DNA of 64,000 bases. Source: Escherichia phage UPWr_E1. The stretch lies in sequence record PP418985.1, one strand, 5' to 3'. Shown piece after piece: positions 3,911 through 61,226 of the stretch; within the stretch, counting starts at the first letter, position 1; each line of letters begins with the position of its first letter. Below the pieces are notes generated by a model, which saw nothing but the letters and a program-made list of their open reading frames with translations, was not told the DNA's origin and did no database searches. The position numbers were made by a program, and so were the translations under genes.

Positions 3911-4222
3911 GTGACAACACAAGATATTGTTAATGTTCTTTATATCTGGCCTACTGGTGCAATGATCTCGTATCTAGTATTCTGCTTGTACGCCAGATTC
4001 GACAAGGACACCAAAGAGGTCGATACAGGAGCATTTTGTATTGCTGCAATCGTATGGCCTATAACGTGGACAGTGGTTAATATTGTTATGTGCTATAAAG
4101 GATTGAAATGTTTTGGTTTGATGATTGCTGGTAAACCGGAAGCTAAACCGCGCACACATACCGGATTCAGTCCAAAACCAGTCGATGACGACGGTCGATA
4201 TAAACCGGAAGAAGATTTTTAA
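3911..4222 (+). CDS. hypothetical membrane protein (about 103 aa, GTG start)
   Basis: GTG 3911 follows AAGGAGGA; two hydrophobic segments; track start 3845 overlaps upstream gene. Confidence 0.45.
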   Translation: MTTQDIVNVLYIWPTGAMISYLVFCLYARFDKDTKEVDTGAFCIAAIVWPITWTVVNIVMCYKGLKCFGLMIAGKPEAKPRTHTGFSPKPVDDDGRYKPEEDF

Positions 4223-13964: not shown

Positions 13965-13974
13965 GGTGATTATT

Positions 13975-14463
13975 ATGAAATGGGAATTGGGTAAGATGTA
14001 CACTCTTGATGGTGACGAGAAGAAAGCAGAATTTACCAAATCGGAACTGTCAATAAACCGTCAAGTTGCCGAGTTTCTTGATGGGCGTCCTTTTACCGTC
14101 GAGGCTATGAGTAATGAGGGTCATGTTCTTGAAATCTCGTTAAGTGATGGTAAATGTATTTCTGTTCTGGACACTCCAATTGGTGCACATGGCGCGTGGT
14201 TTTGGGCTGGTGAACGTCGATTCTTTAAAGAAGTTAAAGAACCGGATTTAACCTTAGAACGTCTGGGTCTGCTTATGGAAGCCTACGACATTCAGTTAAT
14301 CGACAAGACGGGTCTACAACATAGTATTGCCAAAATTACTACCCTAGAAGGTATTAAGAGCGTTCTAAATGGTATGCCTAGCCGGATCGGTGCTATCCGC
14401 GAATACAAGCAAACGCGCGACCGTATGATCCAATTAGAATCACGTATCAAAAATGAGAGATAA
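13975..14463 (+). CDS. repeat-domain family protein (MKWExGK module + helical C-terminus)
   Basis: ATG 13975 after GAGGTGATTATT; MKWELGKMY...DGRPFTV...ERRFFKEV. Confidence 0.6.
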   Translation: MKWELGKMYTLDGDEKKAEFTKSELSINRQVAEFLDGRPFTVEAMSNEGHVLEISLSDGKCISVLDTPIGAHGAWFWAGERRFFKEVKEPDLTLERLGLLMEAYDIQLIDKTGLQHSIAKITTLEGIKSVLNGMPSRIGAIREYKQTRDRMIQLESRIKNER

Positions 14464-14467
14464 TATT

Positions 14468-14953
14468 ATGAAATGGGAAGAAGGTAAGACCTATGTGTTG
14501 GTTGGCGAGTACGAAAAGCGTATTTTGCGTGATTGTTGGCGTTACGAACAAAGACCTAATATTGATGGCAGGTTTACATATCTCGATAAACCATTTATTG
14601 TTGCTACGGTAGACCGTTGGGGTAATGTGCGTTCAATCTATAATCACGAAGGGGATTATATTAGTTCTATCGATATTGGTGATAATATATGGTTTTCCGA
14701 TGGCGACCGAGCGTGCTTCAAAGAAGTTTTATTACCTGGCCATGAACATGATCTAATCGATCTTCTCAAATTGGCGATGGATAATTATAAAATTCGTTTT
14801 GAATGCAAATCACATGCGGCTATCGGTGCTAACGCCTTGCGTCATATCTCCAGTTTTGAAGAGTTGAAAGATTTTCTTGACAAAATGCCGGAAAGAGTTC
14901 AAGCTATACAGGAAGCTGAGAAAGCGTTAAACGAACTTGATAAAATCGGTTAA
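14468..14953 (+). CDS. repeat-domain family protein
   Basis: MKWEEGKTY...DKPFIV...DRACFKEV; ATG 14468. Confidence 0.6.
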   Translation: MKWEEGKTYVLVGEYEKRILRDCWRYEQRPNIDGRFTYLDKPFIVATVDRWGNVRSIYNHEGDYISSIDIGDNIWFSDGDRACFKEVLLPGHEHDLIDLLKLAMDNYKIRFECKSHAAIGANALRHISSFEELKDFLDKMPERVQAIQEAEKALNELDKIG

Positions 14954-14965
14954 GAGGATTATATT

Positions 14966-15799
14966 ATGAAATGGGAAATTGGTAAAACTTACACTTGGAA
15001 AGATGAAAACGCTAAAACTGCGTTTATTGCTAACATAGAAGGTGTTCTTTCTCCGCTTAATAGCGATATTAGCGAAGCTATTGGCGACAAGCCATTTACA
15101 ATCATCGAGATCGAGGGTAATGGTTGGATTGATGTAATAGAGCTAGACGGTGTTTATCATACGGCGAAAACTGCTACAGGAAAAGACATTTGGACATCAA
15201 CATATTTCTTTAGTCCATTCGATAGAAAATTCTTTCGTGAAGTTGAAGAAGTTCCTCCTAAATGGGAAGTTGGTAAAACTTATATTTGGAAGGATGTAAA
15301 CGCAAAAGTGACGTTTTCTCACTGTTCTAATATCAACCGTAAAATTGCTGATTGGATAGGAGATGAGACTTTTACGGTATCTTCCGTTGATTCTGTTGGT
15401 TTCGTTACTATGATCGACGTCAATAATGATAATGCTTGTGGAACATTTAATCCTCATTCAGCTGGTGTTGATGATGATGTTGATGCTGTGTGGTTTGTTG
15501 GGCTTGAACGAAAATATTTTCGTGAAGTTGAAACAGTGAAAGAACCAGAAGAAAAGGTGAACGATGATTCTAAGATCGTTGGACAGTTGAAACGTCTGTT
15601 TAGTAGTCGTTATGGCCTGACAATGGTTAAATTTGGCGAAGCAAATGAAGGTAAAACCTTTGAACGTTTCGATGATTTCATTGCAGCACTTGACAAAATG
15701 GACGAAATCATGCAAGATCGCCAGAAGATTAAAGACCTTCAAGAAGATATTAAACGTCGTGAAGTTGAATTTTTGATTGGTAAAGAGCGAGGTTGGTAA
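14966..15799 (+). CDS. repeat-domain family protein (2 tandem modules + helical C-terminus, 277 aa)
   Basis: MKWEIGKTYTW...DRKFFREV then KWEVGKTYIW...ERKYFREV; ATG after GAGGATTATATT. Confidence 0.65.
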   Translation: MKWEIGKTYTWKDENAKTAFIANIEGVLSPLNSDISEAIGDKPFTIIEIEGNGWIDVIELDGVYHTAKTATGKDIWTSTYFFSPFDRKFFREVEEVPPKWEVGKTYIWKDVNAKVTFSHCSNINRKIADWIGDETFTVSSVDSVGFVTMIDVNNDNACGTFNPHSAGVDDDVDAVWFVGLERKYFREVETVKEPEEKVNDDSKIVGQLKRLFSSRYGLTMVKFGEANEGKTFERFDDFIAALDKMDEIMQDRQKIKDLQEDIKRREVEFLIGKERGW

Positions 15800-15800
15800 T

Positions 15801-16283
15801 ATGTTTGTTGTCGGTATGACCTATCAGTGGAAAGATAATAAAACGCGCGAAGATTTTACAAACTCTAGCGTTGCAAATGATGCAATAGCAGAGTTTATCG
15901 GCGACCGTCCATTTAAAGTTATTGCGTTTGATCACCATGCACCGGATATCGAATATGTTTCTGTGATTGAAATTGATGGCACGATATACACCTGCCGCAA
16001 TGTTGATGATGTACGTGAATACGCGCACAACTGGTTTTTGCAATCAGAAGAACGTTATTTTAAAGTGGTATCGGCAGAACTGACCACCGATGCAATGTTG
16101 GAACATTTTTTCAACAACTACGAAGTTTCTGTGCGTCGATATGGTGAAGAGGAAGTGTTTAAAATTGATGACTATAATCAATTTAAACGAGTATTTGCCA
16201 CTAAGTTACAGCATGATGTTGAACGCGAACAACGCATCAAGGAACTGGAAGAAGAACTGGAACGATTAAAGGCAGAGAAATGA
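15801..16283 (+). CDS. repeat-domain family protein (1 module + coiled-coil C-terminus)
   Basis: MTYQWKD...DRPFKV...ERYFKVV; ELEEELERLKAEK tail; ATG 15801. Confidence 0.6.
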   Translation: MFVVGMTYQWKDNKTREDFTNSSVANDAIAEFIGDRPFKVIAFDHHAPDIEYVSVIEIDGTIYTCRNVDDVREYAHNWFLQSEERYFKVVSAELTTDAMLEHFFNNYEVSVRRYGEEEVFKIDDYNQFKRVFATKLQHDVEREQRIKELEEELERLKAEK

Positions 16284-16549
16284 TCGAGGTCTACGGCATA
16301 CCTAAAGAGGCTTATCATTGTTATGGCTGTATCAATGCAATGAAGCTACTCGACGATCTGGGTATTCCGTATACACTTAAACCAGTATTCAAGCAGGTCG
16401 GGGTTGACATTATTCCCGACCGTGATATGATTGAAGAACTGGCGGGGAGGCTGAACTCAAAGAGCCTCCGATTTGTATACCCCCAGATATTCATTGACAA
16501 CGAGCACATTGGAGGCTATAAAGAACTGAGGGATATTTATGATTATTGA
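16280..16549 (+). CDS. nrdH: glutaredoxin-like protein (NrdH-like redoxin)
   Basis: CYGC redox motif, PQIFIDNEHIGGY C-terminus; near nrdG as in T4. Confidence 0.7.
   Translation: MIEVYGIPKEAYHCYGCINAMKLLDDLGIPYTLKPVFKQVGVDIIPDRDMIEELAGRLNSKSLRFVYPQIFIDNEHIGGYKELRDIYDY
16396..16431 (+). promoter_or_regulatory. promoter-like element embedded in the nrdH-like coding sequence
   Basis: Hairpin GGTCGGG 16396-16402 / CCCGACC 16415-16421 enclosing TTGACA 16404-16409; TGaTATGAT 16423-16431. Confidence 0.4.
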
Positions 16550-16697
16550 GAATTTAGTTTCGGTGTTCATTATTGCTTTATTTGCTATAATGGCTTTACC
16601 GTTGAAGACGTGTAAACACTGTAAAGGAACAGGATTGCGCGGTGATGGGTGTTGTGCTCATTGTCACGGATCTGGTAAAGTAAGTATCATTAAGTAA
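16539..16697 (+). CDS. small membrane-anchored protein with DnaJ-type zinc-finger repeats (52 aa, not in ORF track)
   Basis: ATG 16539; N-terminal hydrophobic helix then CKHCKGTG and CAHCHGSG (CxxCxGxG x2); embedded promoter-like element 16396-16431 upstream. Confidence 0.4.
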   Translation: MIIENLVSVFIIALFAIMALPLKTCKHCKGTGLRGDGCCAHCHGSGKVSIIK

Positions 16698-16718: not shown

Positions 16719-17006
16719 ATGTTAGTACACAATGCAATCGCACACATGGTTTACTCTCGATTTGGACGCATGGAAGAAATCAATATTACCGATGCAGATT
16801 TAGATCTGATGCAAGTCGAAGGCCAGACATATCTGAAAAATAACGGCGTGAATATCGGTAAAGCGCGTGTGCGTGAATTGTTGGTTGAATATATTCTCTC
16901 TGAATTTGGCATTAGTGCTTTCGGTGTGAAAGAGATTGCACCTAAGCGCGAAATTTCTGATAAAATGATCAAGAAATGCCAGAAAGCACGACGTAAGGGT
17001 TTCTAA
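16719..17006 (+). CDS. hypothetical protein (95 aa)
   Basis: ATG 16719 after GAGGAATATATT. Confidence 0.5.
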   Translation: MLVHNAIAHMVYSRFGRMEEINITDADLDLMQVEGQTYLKNNGVNIGKARVRELLVEYILSEFGISAFGVKEIAPKREISDKMIKKCQKARRKGF

Positions 17007-18475
17007 TGAAGATTGAAACATTAATCGCATTGCCAGCGGCGGGGAAAACTGATGCTATACTTTCCCACGTCCTAGAGACAAAAGAAAAAGCGGTTATTGC
17101 TTCGCCATCTCGTGTTTTAAGTGAACAATCTTACAATAAGTTTAAAAGAATGGGCGGTCGTGCTGTCTTGATTGATAGCACCAGACTAAGAAGCCTTAAG
17201 ACAGTGCAAGCGTCGATAATGCAATCAGTTAAAGATGGTGCTGGTGTGATATTCATTACACATACAGCGTTATCTAATATGGAGCGTTCAAAAATGTTTA
17301 GTGAATATGCTCTTTACATTGATGAAGTTCCTCAACTGGTTGAATTTAATGAGTATCCGTTTAAGTCTAATCTTGAACTTATCACGAAGCATTGCGAACC
17401 AATCGCCGACGAATCGGAATGCCTACAGAACTTAGTTCTAAAAGACTCTGAGAAGGCCGCTATCAAAGAAAAGATAGAAAGTGCAAAGGATGGTACTGAT
17501 ATGATCGATTCTTCTCTTAGAGGGCTTTATGAGGCGTTATTAGAGAAGAAAATCAACGTTATGGTAAAACATAACGAAGGACACCGGAAGAACGGGTCGA
17601 AAATTGTTTTCTTGAACGATAACAAACACGGTACGTGGGGAGACTTTAAAAAGGTTACGATAGCATGTGCAAATCTCTTTGATACATATAGTGGGAAGTA
17701 TCTACGATACTATGCAAATTGCGATTTTGTTCCTAGTGCGCTAGAATCCAGACTATATTTCAAAGAGTATAAAAATACAGATAGAGTTAACATCATCCTT
17801 ATGACGGACTCTGAACGATGGTCGCGTCACCAGTCAGAAACAAACAATACCTTTGAACGTCTTGTTGATATGGTTAAAAATGAATGTGGTGATGACTTCA
17901 TTTATACCGTGAATCGGGACCGTGAAGCGTGCACAAATGGTATTGGTGAGCGGATACCTTACGGATCTTATGGTCTTAACTCTTACATTCATCATAAAAA
18001 TGTTGCTGTGATGTTCAGCTTTAACCCTCAACGATGGGAGATTGATATTTTAAAAGGTCTTGCTAATAGTTGCGATCTCCCGACAAATGAGTTTTTGAAA
18101 GCGCGTCATGTGTCTGATTATCTGGAACCAGCATTTCAATTATGTTTGCGTTGTAACCTGAGAGACAACGAGAGCAAGGAGAATGTTAATCTATATGTTC
18201 CTGATTGGGCGTTGGTAGATTATCTAAAAACGTTTCTACCTAATGCCAATGTAATAACAGACCGAATGATTCCGCTAGAATGTGGTGAGCGTAAAGGGCG
18301 AAAATCATTTAAAAAGATGTTCGACTTTAACGAGCAAGAGAATGCAAGATTTAACGGATTTAAGTACCGCATGAAGAAAAAAGGAAAAACTCTTGATCCG
18401 TCTGACGGTGAATCAGTAGAGATGGTTAGAGTGTGGATAACTAAGCAAAGAAAGTATAATGGTAATGGGGAATAG
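17006..18475 (+). CDS. P-loop NTPase of unknown function (489 aa)
   Basis: Walker A ALPAAGKT near N-terminus, Walker B-like YIDEV; no T4 counterpart recognised. Confidence 0.6.
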   Translation: MKIETLIALPAAGKTDAILSHVLETKEKAVIASPSRVLSEQSYNKFKRMGGRAVLIDSTRLRSLKTVQASIMQSVKDGAGVIFITHTALSNMERSKMFSEYALYIDEVPQLVEFNEYPFKSNLELITKHCEPIADESECLQNLVLKDSEKAAIKEKIESAKDGTDMIDSSLRGLYEALLEKKINVMVKHNEGHRKNGSKIVFLNDNKHGTWGDFKKVTIACANLFDTYSGKYLRYYANCDFVPSALESRLYFKEYKNTDRVNIILMTDSERWSRHQSETNNTFERLVDMVKNECGDDFIYTVNRDREACTNGIGERIPYGSYGLNSYIHHKNVAVMFSFNPQRWEIDILKGLANSCDLPTNEFLKARHVSDYLEPAFQLCLRCNLRDNESKENVNLYVPDWALVDYLKTFLPNANVITDRMIPLECGERKGRKSFKKMFDFNEQENARFNGFKYRMKKKGKTLDPSDGESVEMVRVWITKQRKYNGNGE

Positions 18476-18515: not shown

Positions 18516-19049
18516 GTGTCTGATTATGTAAACAATAAAGAGCTTTACGAAGAAATTTGTCGTTGGAAACAACGAATTGCAGCCGAAGGTCGACAAGTGC
18601 CAATGAGCGATCAAATCGGCCTAGCAATTATGCAAATCTCTAAAAATCTATCACGGCGTTTTAACTTTTCTGGCTATAGTCAAACATGGCGCGAAGAAAT
18701 GATCGACGATGGAATCGAAGCGGCGGTCAAGGGTTTGATTAATTTTGACGAGACAAAGTATAAAAATCCTCATGCTTACATCACGCAAGCGTGCTTTAAT
18801 GCTTTTGTGCAGCGCATTAAAAAAGAAAGAACAGCAACCGCCGCAAAATACAAATATTTTGTGCATCATGTATATGACGAACGCGACGCTGATATGTGCC
18901 AGATTGCTGATGAGGCATTCATACAGGACATTTACGATAAGATCAACAACTACGAGGAATCGGTCAATAAACCGAAAGCGCCAAAGGTTGAAGATGTATT
19001 GACCGAGGAATTGCCTAGCCTGGACCAATTTTATGAGATTGAAAATTAA
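18516..19049 (+). CDS. 55: late-transcription sigma factor gp55
   Basis: Long colinear stretch with remembered T4 gp55 (FNFSGY..., [29 protein letters not shown]); GTG start 18516 after GAGGGTG. Confidence 0.9.
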
Positions 19050-19555: not shown

Positions 19556-19576
19556 TGGCTTTATAAGGGAGACTCT

Positions 19577-19600
19577 GAAAGGGGTTTCCCTTTTTATTTT
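19577..19600 (+). terminator. possible terminator
   Basis: Short GC stem around GGGGTTTCCC followed by TTTTTATTTT. Confidence 0.4.
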
Positions 19601-61218: not shown

Positions 61219-61226
61219 TATTTATA
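61219..61226 (-). promoter_or_regulatory. T4-type late promoter (TATAAATA) for the gene 36-like tail fibre gene
   Basis: + strand TATTTATA 61219-61226 = TATAAATA on - strand, about 34 nt upstream of ATG 61185 with GAGGT RBS between. Confidence 0.65.

Follow-up and report, generated by a model that had tools for sequence, protein, structure and literature searches.

Escherichia phage UPWr_E1 carries, at positions 17006..18475 (+ strand) of the 64,000-nucleotide stretch of record PP418985.1 analysed here (the window), a gene for a 489-amino-acid protein that, judged by its motifs and predicted fold, is a complete superfamily 2 (SF2) helicase-type ATPase with intact motifs. We estimate at about 60% the probability that this protein is an active SF2 DNA motor, made early, which serves as an accessory or initiation helicase in phage DNA replication or recombination. 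The gene, which is ORF044 of phage Phi1 and belongs to PHROG 2467, is carried by most T4-like phages other than T4 itself, and is a probable fourth, additional helicase-type gene in these phages. An earlier note, made from the letters of the window, had described the product as a large P-loop NTPase of unknown function.

The gene, its motifs and its predicted fold

The ORF listing and the translation returned a single 489-residue open reading frame (ORF) with an ATG start at 17006..18475 (+), as the earlier note had it, and the opposite strand is closed by many stop codons. The predicted protein begins with MKIETLIALPAAGKT. The ATG and the stop codon of the gene before it share nucleotides (TAATG), and an AAGGG ribosome-binding site lies 6 nucleotides 5′ of the ATG. 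The profile of PHROG 2467 ("unknown function") matches the protein at E 1.3e-173, pairing residues 1-489 with profile positions 8-502 of 502. The surrounding 5.7 kb are 96-97% identical to Krischvirus genomes (the RB49/Phi1-like coliphages FL04, JK32, ECD7 and others), across which the protein itself keeps 99% amino-acid identity; the comparison with the Phi1 copy gave 18 synonymous and 3 non-synonymous differences, that is, a ratio of non-synonymous to synonymous substitution rates (dN/dS) of 0.042. Public sources already label the Krischvirus copies automatically as "DEAD/DEAH box helicase (family/domain-containing) protein", and the phage GenBank records, Phi1 ORF044 included, read "hypothetical". 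Given the end-to-end PHROG match, the homologues in 243 phage records described below, the low dN/dS and these automatic labels, the ORF is a real gene, conserved, syntenic and under strong purifying selection, and not a chance ORF.

We aligned 24 family members, each 32-74% identical to the UPWr_E1 protein. Every canonical SF2 motif contains residues that are invariant in this alignment, and the core motif residues remain invariant once relatives of about 800 residues, discussed below, join it. The motifs are as follows.

17027..17050, + strand: motif I (Walker A), residues 8-15, ALPAAGKT; G13, K14 and T15 invariant; paired by hhalign with AQTGTGKT of RhlE
17096..17131, + strand: motif Ia-like, residues 31-42, IASPSRVLSEQS; S33, L38, Q41 and S42 invariant; paired by hhalign with PTRELAAQ of RhlE
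17246..17272, + strand: motif Ib-like, residues 81-89, VIFITHTAL; V81, F83, T85, H86 and L89 invariant; paired by hhalign with the TPGRL region of RhlE
17312..17332, + strand: motif II (Walker B), residues 103-109, LYIDEVP; L103, D106, E107 and P109 invariant, also in the 800-residue relatives
17651..17674, + strand: putative motif III-like, residues 216-223, VTIACANL (a SAT-type motif as xAN); T218 invariant, N223 nearly so
17972..18028, + strand: putative motif V region in RecA-like domain 2, residues 323-341, GLNSY...NVAVMFSFNP; G323, N325 and N340 invariant family-wide
18128..18163, + strand: motif VI, residues 375-386, PAFQLCLRCNLR; glutamine and arginine fingers Q378, R382 and R386 invariant in short and long forms

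The Walker A (LPAAGKT, residues 9-15) named in the earlier note is thus in place, A8-T15 matching the pattern [AG]x4GK[ST], and its Walker B-like YIDEV lies at residues 104-108, about 90 residues further on (the note had said about 100). The invariance of G13, K14, T15, D106 and E107 agrees with its call of a P-loop NTPase. Motif II reads DEVP in place of DEAD or DEAH, and motif VI follows the pattern FQLCxRxxxR. Across motifs IV-V, N303 is invariant along with G323, N325 and N340, and the sole invariant cysteines of the family are C130 and C380. The protein thus combines Walker A, a Walker B of the DExx kind, the motif VI glutamine and arginine fingers and, in the model described below, two tandem RecA-like domains. 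Pfam DEAD (PF00270) scores it at 25.7 bits, just under the 26-bit gathering cut-off, and matches 13 of the 24 family members (best E 2e-8); some cluster representatives of the family carry a precomputed PF00270 assignment. An hhalign comparison with E. coli RhlE was weak and non-significant (probability 4%), with motifs I, Ia, Ib and II lined up as expected. There is no Q motif in the protein, and the NCBIfam search gave no match.

A confident AlphaFold2 model built on the family alignment (mean predicted local distance difference test score 86.6, predicted template modelling score 0.76) comprises two alpha/beta, RecA-like domains with two additions.

17333..17650, + strand: alpha/beta insertion of about 105 residues in RecA-like domain 1, from the secondary structure of the model; between motifs II and III, where XPD/DinG carry the Arch domain
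18260..18472, + strand: basic, mostly helical C-terminal tail, residues 419-489, with 18 K/R against 11 D/E and a low-confidence linker at 426-431

An equivalent insertion is present in the model of P0043, one of the long relatives. Two residues of the tail, E445 and W477, are invariant, and the tail may serve to bind DNA or a protein partner. The best fold matches of the model, with their scores, were these.

S. tokodaii XPD (2vl7): 16.3, 312 residues aligned
XPD/Rad3-related helicase (3crv): 15.4, 327 residues aligned
F. magna DinG: 14.9, 347 residues aligned
E. coli DinG: 14.3, 369 residues aligned
Rad3: 14.2, 345 residues aligned
Type IV-A3 CRISPR DinG: 14.1, 326 residues aligned

Other two-domain SF2 helicases (HsdR, Mfd, Rad25, CSB, Ino80) aligned over about 255 residues at most, and T4 UvsW over 147 residues in one domain only. 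The longer XPD/DinG alignments (312-369 residues) fit an insertion that sits at the position of the XPD Arch domain, to which it may be equivalent. An independent Foldseek search of the PDB placed CasDinG, DinG and XPD all within its top 15, and the structural neighbours include CRISPR-associated DinG and DdmD. The predicted fold and architecture are closest to the XPD/Rad3/DinG group of 5′-3′ DNA helicases. This closeness and the Pfam DEAD matches support placing the protein in SF2.

Membership of the XPD/DinG family itself was considered and rejected. No iron-sulphur (Fe-S) domain or vestige of one is present: motifs Ia and Ib are about 40 residues apart, the stretch between them is cysteine-free, and the four conserved cysteines are absent. 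Because of this, of DEVP in place of DEAH and of the lack of profile similarity to E. coli DinG (hhalign probability 0.4%), we call the protein an SF2 helicase with XPD/DinG-like architecture and not a DinG. The Foldseek and motif checks proposed in the earlier note came out with a complete SF2 set and XPD/DinG-type folds as nearest. We found no clear orthology to a known conserved replication or packaging protein of phages, which the note had named as what would refute it; the protein can nonetheless be placed more precisely than in the note, among SF2 helicase-type ATPases.

Gene neighbourhood and distribution among T4-like phages

The gene lies in the nrdH-55 interval, where the earlier note had located it. 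The order in Phi1 is nrdG, four paralogous ORFs, nrdH, a small ORF, 55.2, ORF044 and 55, followed by a-gt.5, a-gt.4, 47, four small ORFs and 46. Its immediate surroundings in the window are these.

16661..16690, + strand: candidate sigma-70-like promoter, TTGTCA-18-TATCAT, only a 10/12 consensus match, just 5′ of the 55.2-like gene
16719..17006, + strand: 55.2-like gene, a T4 gp55.2 homologue (DUF7570), translationally coupled upstream of the helicase-like gene
18516..19049, + strand: gene 55 (late sigma factor), 40 nucleotides 3′ of the helicase-like gene on the same strand
19565..19592, + strand: first downstream terminator-like hairpin on the + strand, a consensus match

The promoter candidate and the hairpin suggest, from sequence, an early transcription unit made up of the 55.2-like gene, the helicase-like gene, 55, a-gt.5 and a-gt.4. 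The product of the 55.2-like gene is about 42% identical to gp55.2 of RB14. In T4, gp55.2 inhibits E. coli topoisomerase I, and its gene is transcribed early (PMC4396842). The T4 late promoter core TATAAATA occurs once in the 64-kb window (61219-61226, - strand) against 5.6 +/- 2.2 copies expected from shuffles, far from the helicase-like gene and on the other strand; this scarcity fits a window of almost entirely early and middle genes.

Full-length homologues were found by tblastn in 243 phage records, none of them from a T-even genus. The records belong to Straboviridae whose hosts are Aeromonas, Escherichia (Krischvirus only), Cronobacter, Enterobacter, Citrobacter, Klebsiella, Serratia, Proteus, Erwinia and Yersinia, and identity outside Krischvirus is 34-42%. 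Homologues of 55.2, by comparison, occur in 1,092 phage records, T-even phages among them, so the T-even phages have 55.2 and 55 without the helicase-like gene between them. The gene stands immediately 5′ of 55 in Phi1 (Krischvirus), Aeromonas phage 31 (Biquartavirus) and Aeromonas phage 65 (Emmerichvirinae). In Citrobacter phage Miller it comes after nrdH and 55.2, and the region downstream is rearranged. In all four phages it starts before the gene upstream has ended.

The nrdH-55 interval of Aeromonas phage 31 contains inserted ORFs, several of which stand between the 55.2-like and the helicase-like gene. In place of 55.2, the upstream gene to which the latter is translationally coupled encodes a DprA-like recombination-mediator homologue (PHROG 768; locus L002, 4441-5004); on the other side, before 55, there is a dispersed repeat, '31repeatA' (L002, 6571-6641). 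A fixed partnership with a DprA-like or a gp55.2-like protein was therefore rejected, since the window lacks a DprA-like gene and phage 31 separates the 55.2-like one.

Phi1 also encodes gp41, Dda, UvsW and UvsW.1, all distinct from ORF044. Since Phi1 keeps gp41, Dda and UvsW, ORF044 is an extra helicase-type gene and no substitute, and we rejected the idea that it replaces a missing T4 helicase. The earlier statement that the protein could not be tied to a known T4 protein is consistent with this and with the lack of a T-even homologue. A link to unmodified cytosine was also rejected: Proteus phage Pm5461, which is among the phages with genes presumably linked to base modification (PMC8056088), carries the helicase-like gene.

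A scan of bacterial and archaeal genomes gave two loci only, each with a homologue of 35% identity, and no bacterial context for the short form. They lie in a Flagellimonas marina contig (NZ_JBHSCL010000010.1, 178,077 bp; L005) and a 43-kb sequence from a metagenome-assembled genome of Bacilli (L004). Both are most likely T4-like phage sequence within bacterial assemblies, one of them as large as an RB43-like phage genome.

Several further observations concern individual genomes. The homologue of Citrobacter phage Miller (NC_025414.1; L009, 4001-5428) is annotated from 4166, and the tblastn match begins at 4001; the start codon in the record probably lies about 55 codons too far downstream, and the match overlaps the end of the 55.2-like gene. 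In Pseudoalteromonas phage PH357 (KX822733.1) the context is uninformative, all neighbours being annotated as hypothetical. About 2.2 kb without an annotated gene (L018, 5731-7899), within an otherwise tightly packed early region, sits there just 5′ of a small ORF that overlaps the start of the homologue. Upstream in our window, between nrdG and nrdH, four tandem paralogous ORFs of 165, 166, 277 and 168 residues occupy 13966-16283 (+). They correspond to Phi1 ORF051-048 and fall into PHROG 5347 (unknown function); PHROGs annotated as 'goF mRNA metabolism modulator' match them more weakly. All four carry MKWE.GKTY at the N-terminus or close to it, and in the 277-residue ORF the N-terminal module is duplicated internally. 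The 52-residue ORF at 16539-16697 (+; PHROG 3931, unknown function) has a hydrophobic N-terminal helix followed by CKHCKGTG...CAHCHGSG, a zinc-finger-like CxxCxGxG pair of the DnaJ type.

Long relatives in integrative elements

A family profile search of 1.84 billion representative proteins gave 1,943 clusters at E <= 1e-3 and 1,301 at E <= 1e-10. There are two main length classes, of about 450-550 and 750-900 residues, and nearly all of the best 150 match from the N-terminus. In the long relatives P0043, P0193 and P0201 (about 800 residues; the phage version is PHROG 31024) the helicase module is homologous over its full length (E down to 1e-76); PHROG 31024 in turn matches the UPWr_E1 protein at E 2e-9 within its N-terminal part only (positions 11-473 of 893).

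The long class has an additional C-terminal domain of about 330 residues, in which the whole proteins had no Pfam match. When 20 such extensions were scanned alone, they matched three PHROGs annotated as "DNA primase", namely 9765 (19 of 20, best E 6e-11), 2135 (10 of 20) and 17236 (3 of 20), as well as the N-terminal part of PHROG 256 (16 of 20) and Pfam PriCT_1 (3 of 20). Their conserved motifs WLDxDxGD and G-x-D-x-S-K look to us like primase metal-binding motifs.

On metagenomic and genomic contigs the long proteins, or a split helicase with a second ORF, come after a tyrosine integrase (Arm-DNA-bind_3 plus Phage_integrase) and an AlpA/HTH_17 gene, with variable cargo downstream. The integrase-AlpA-long protein elements are located as follows.

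L007, 8168-12445
L008, 6023-10300
L013, 4401-10350

In L013 and L014 the long protein is split into two ORFs. Defence-like cargo (Metallophos, PLDc, Mrr_cat) follows the long protein, and a chromosomal long copy in Bradyrhizobium adjoins a DNA ligase gene. The long protein stands at the replicase position of integrative elements or satellites, and these relatives point to a widespread type of replicase with an SF2 rather than a ring helicase.

Part of this has been noticed before. Kazlauskas et al. predicted in 2018 a new family of virus and plasmid helicases, in which uncharacterised proteins of 'some T4-like phages' and of SPbeta were remotely SF2-like and were fused to archaeo-eukaryotic primases in mobile elements (PMC5862659). 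The same paper linked the helicases of pVOG1685/9714 to UL9-like proteins. That family is probably the one described here, and pVOG1685 may belong to it. The protein was thus probably flagged in passing in 2018, and a DEAD/DEAH-like label already stands in some databases. We add the Fe-S-less XPD/DinG-like architecture, the position beside 55 outside the T-evens, the status as an extra helicase-type gene and, for integrase-AlpA islands, relatives of the helicase(N)-primase(C) kind. The sole SPbeta ORF to match the long-form profile was YonV (hypothetical; NC_001884.1, 67250-68482; L017, 18251-19483), at 29.7 bits. The match is limited to motifs I-II and a faint stretch near motif VI, and is no stronger than those of unrelated SF2 helicases; YonV may be the SPbeta protein that was grouped with the T4-like helicases in 2018.

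Proposed role, alternatives and known systems

In the accessory or initiation helicase that we propose, the two RecA-like domains would bind and hydrolyse ATP in a shared cleft formed with K14, D106/E107, Q378 and R382/R386. Its expression would be early and shared with gene 55 and the 55.2-like gene, whose product is homologous to a topoisomerase-I inhibitor. The motor would unwind or remodel intermediates of replication and recombination (forks, D-loops and R-loops, for example), working alongside gp41, Dda and UvsW on phage DNA. We infer the substrate (DNA and not RNA), the 5′-3′ polarity, when the protein is expressed and what exactly it does in the phage. DinG-type helicases remove R-loops, and the gene adjoins one for a topoisomerase-I inhibitor homologue; together these hint at a connection with R-loops and underwound DNA. 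This adjacency is not universal, as Aeromonas phage 31 shows with several ORFs, the DprA-like gene among them, in between.

Several results weigh against this proposal. The Fe-S wedge domain of XPD/DinG, which bears on strand separation, is absent. The hhalign comparison of the family profile with E. coli DinG gave no signal, and sequence searches of the PDB with the single protein and with the family profile gave no significant match. Around the gene, a search for origin-like iterons or inverted repeats returned only short repeats at chance level. The phage form has no primase domain, so that the argument from the fusions carries over only indirectly. Finally, with gp41, Dda and UvsW already in Phi1 and the T-evens managing without the gene, the role may be dispensable or non-core.

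The alternatives we considered are less supported. The protein might be a dedicated origin or initiation helicase, UL9-like or the helicase half of a replicase, which opens specific sites for the loading of gp41/gp61 and replaces T4-specific origin mechanisms. The long members of the family, being helicase-primase fusions at the int-alpA replicase position, would suit such a function, as would the absence of the gene from T-even genera and a basic helical tail that, in the model, could bind DNA. The lack of iterons or origin-like repeats near the gene argues against it, as does the lack of a match to Pfam Herpes_ori_bp, and we consider this alternative unlikely. A conflict function, in which an ATP-driven motor strips effector complexes or R-loops of a host defence or competing element, or excludes satellites with a related replicase, seems to us decidedly unlikely. 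It would account for the patchy distribution among T4-like genera, for CRISPR-associated DinG and DdmD as structural neighbours, and for the defence-like cargo (Mrr_cat, PLDc, Metallophos) of the islands that house the long relatives. However, the island relative is the replicase-position gene and not cargo, PADLOC gave no significant match (best E 0.0088 over 60 residues), its location among DNA-metabolism genes is the same in phage groups far apart from each other, and selection is purifying and not diversifying, as the near-identity within Krischvirus reflects.

A late sigma gene as neighbour would also fit a DEAD-box-type RNA helicase, or a remodeller of RNA-protein complexes, acting on phage transcripts or the transcription apparatus. 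We regard this as improbable, given that the best whole-protein fold matches are the DNA helicases XPD and DinG, that the Q motif is missing and DEVP replaces DEAD, that the relatives are fused to a DNA primase-like domain, and that the RhlE match is non-significant. Least probable is dispensable, horizontally acquired cargo with no part in the life cycle, as the earlier note's mention of variable cargo implied: the interval does vary, with ORFs inserted in Aeromonas phage 31 and a rearrangement downstream in Miller, and T-even phages lack the gene, but phage groups far apart, whose proteins share only 34-42% identity, have it in the same position, with all catalytic motifs intact and under strong purifying selection.

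A bolder version of the accessory or initiation helicase reading, which we offer as a doubtful speculation, would make the family a distinct clade, of viruses and mobile elements, of monomer-type, Fe-S-less XPD-like helicases; in integrase-AlpA islands it would supply the unwinding half of a new helicase(N)-primase(C) replicase. The stand-alone T4-like copy would be the missing origin or initiation helicase, possibly acting with the gp55.2-like protein to make and then process R-loops or underwound DNA where replication starts. Phage replication and recombination have T4, whose three helicases are well studied, as their reference system, and a fourth helicase-type motor kept by many T4-like phages outside the T-evens would, if true, be a further component of that machinery, for which RB49/Phi1-type phages would offer a practical system of study. 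A modest practical outcome is that the annotation can read SF2 (XPD/DinG-like) helicase instead of "hypothetical".

Compared with known systems, the UPWr_E1 protein is, at 489 residues, smaller than most of XPD, Rad3, DinG and CasDinG, which span 459-887 residues (most about 600). Whereas these have an Fe-S domain and DEAH, it has neither and carries DEVP instead. The long helicase-primase class continues into C-terminal primase-like and PriCT-like parts; the phage protein ends at residue 489 with its 70-residue basic tail. The long relatives themselves, with the helicase N-terminal and the primase C-terminal, reverse the usual primase-helicase order, and they differ in this from the proteins of the 2018 study, whose helicase is C-terminal to the primase (PMC5862659). 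SF2 helicases act in viral replication initiation either alone or fused to a primase, as in herpesvirus UL9 and the RepA proteins of N15 and PY54 (PMC4889955, PMC5862659); these are precedents from the literature, the UPWr_E1 protein having no Herpes_ori_bp match. The accessory helicases of T4, UvsW (SF2) and Dda (superfamily 1), are the products of separate genes, and Phi1 holds dda, uvsW and uvsW.1 in addition to ORF044.

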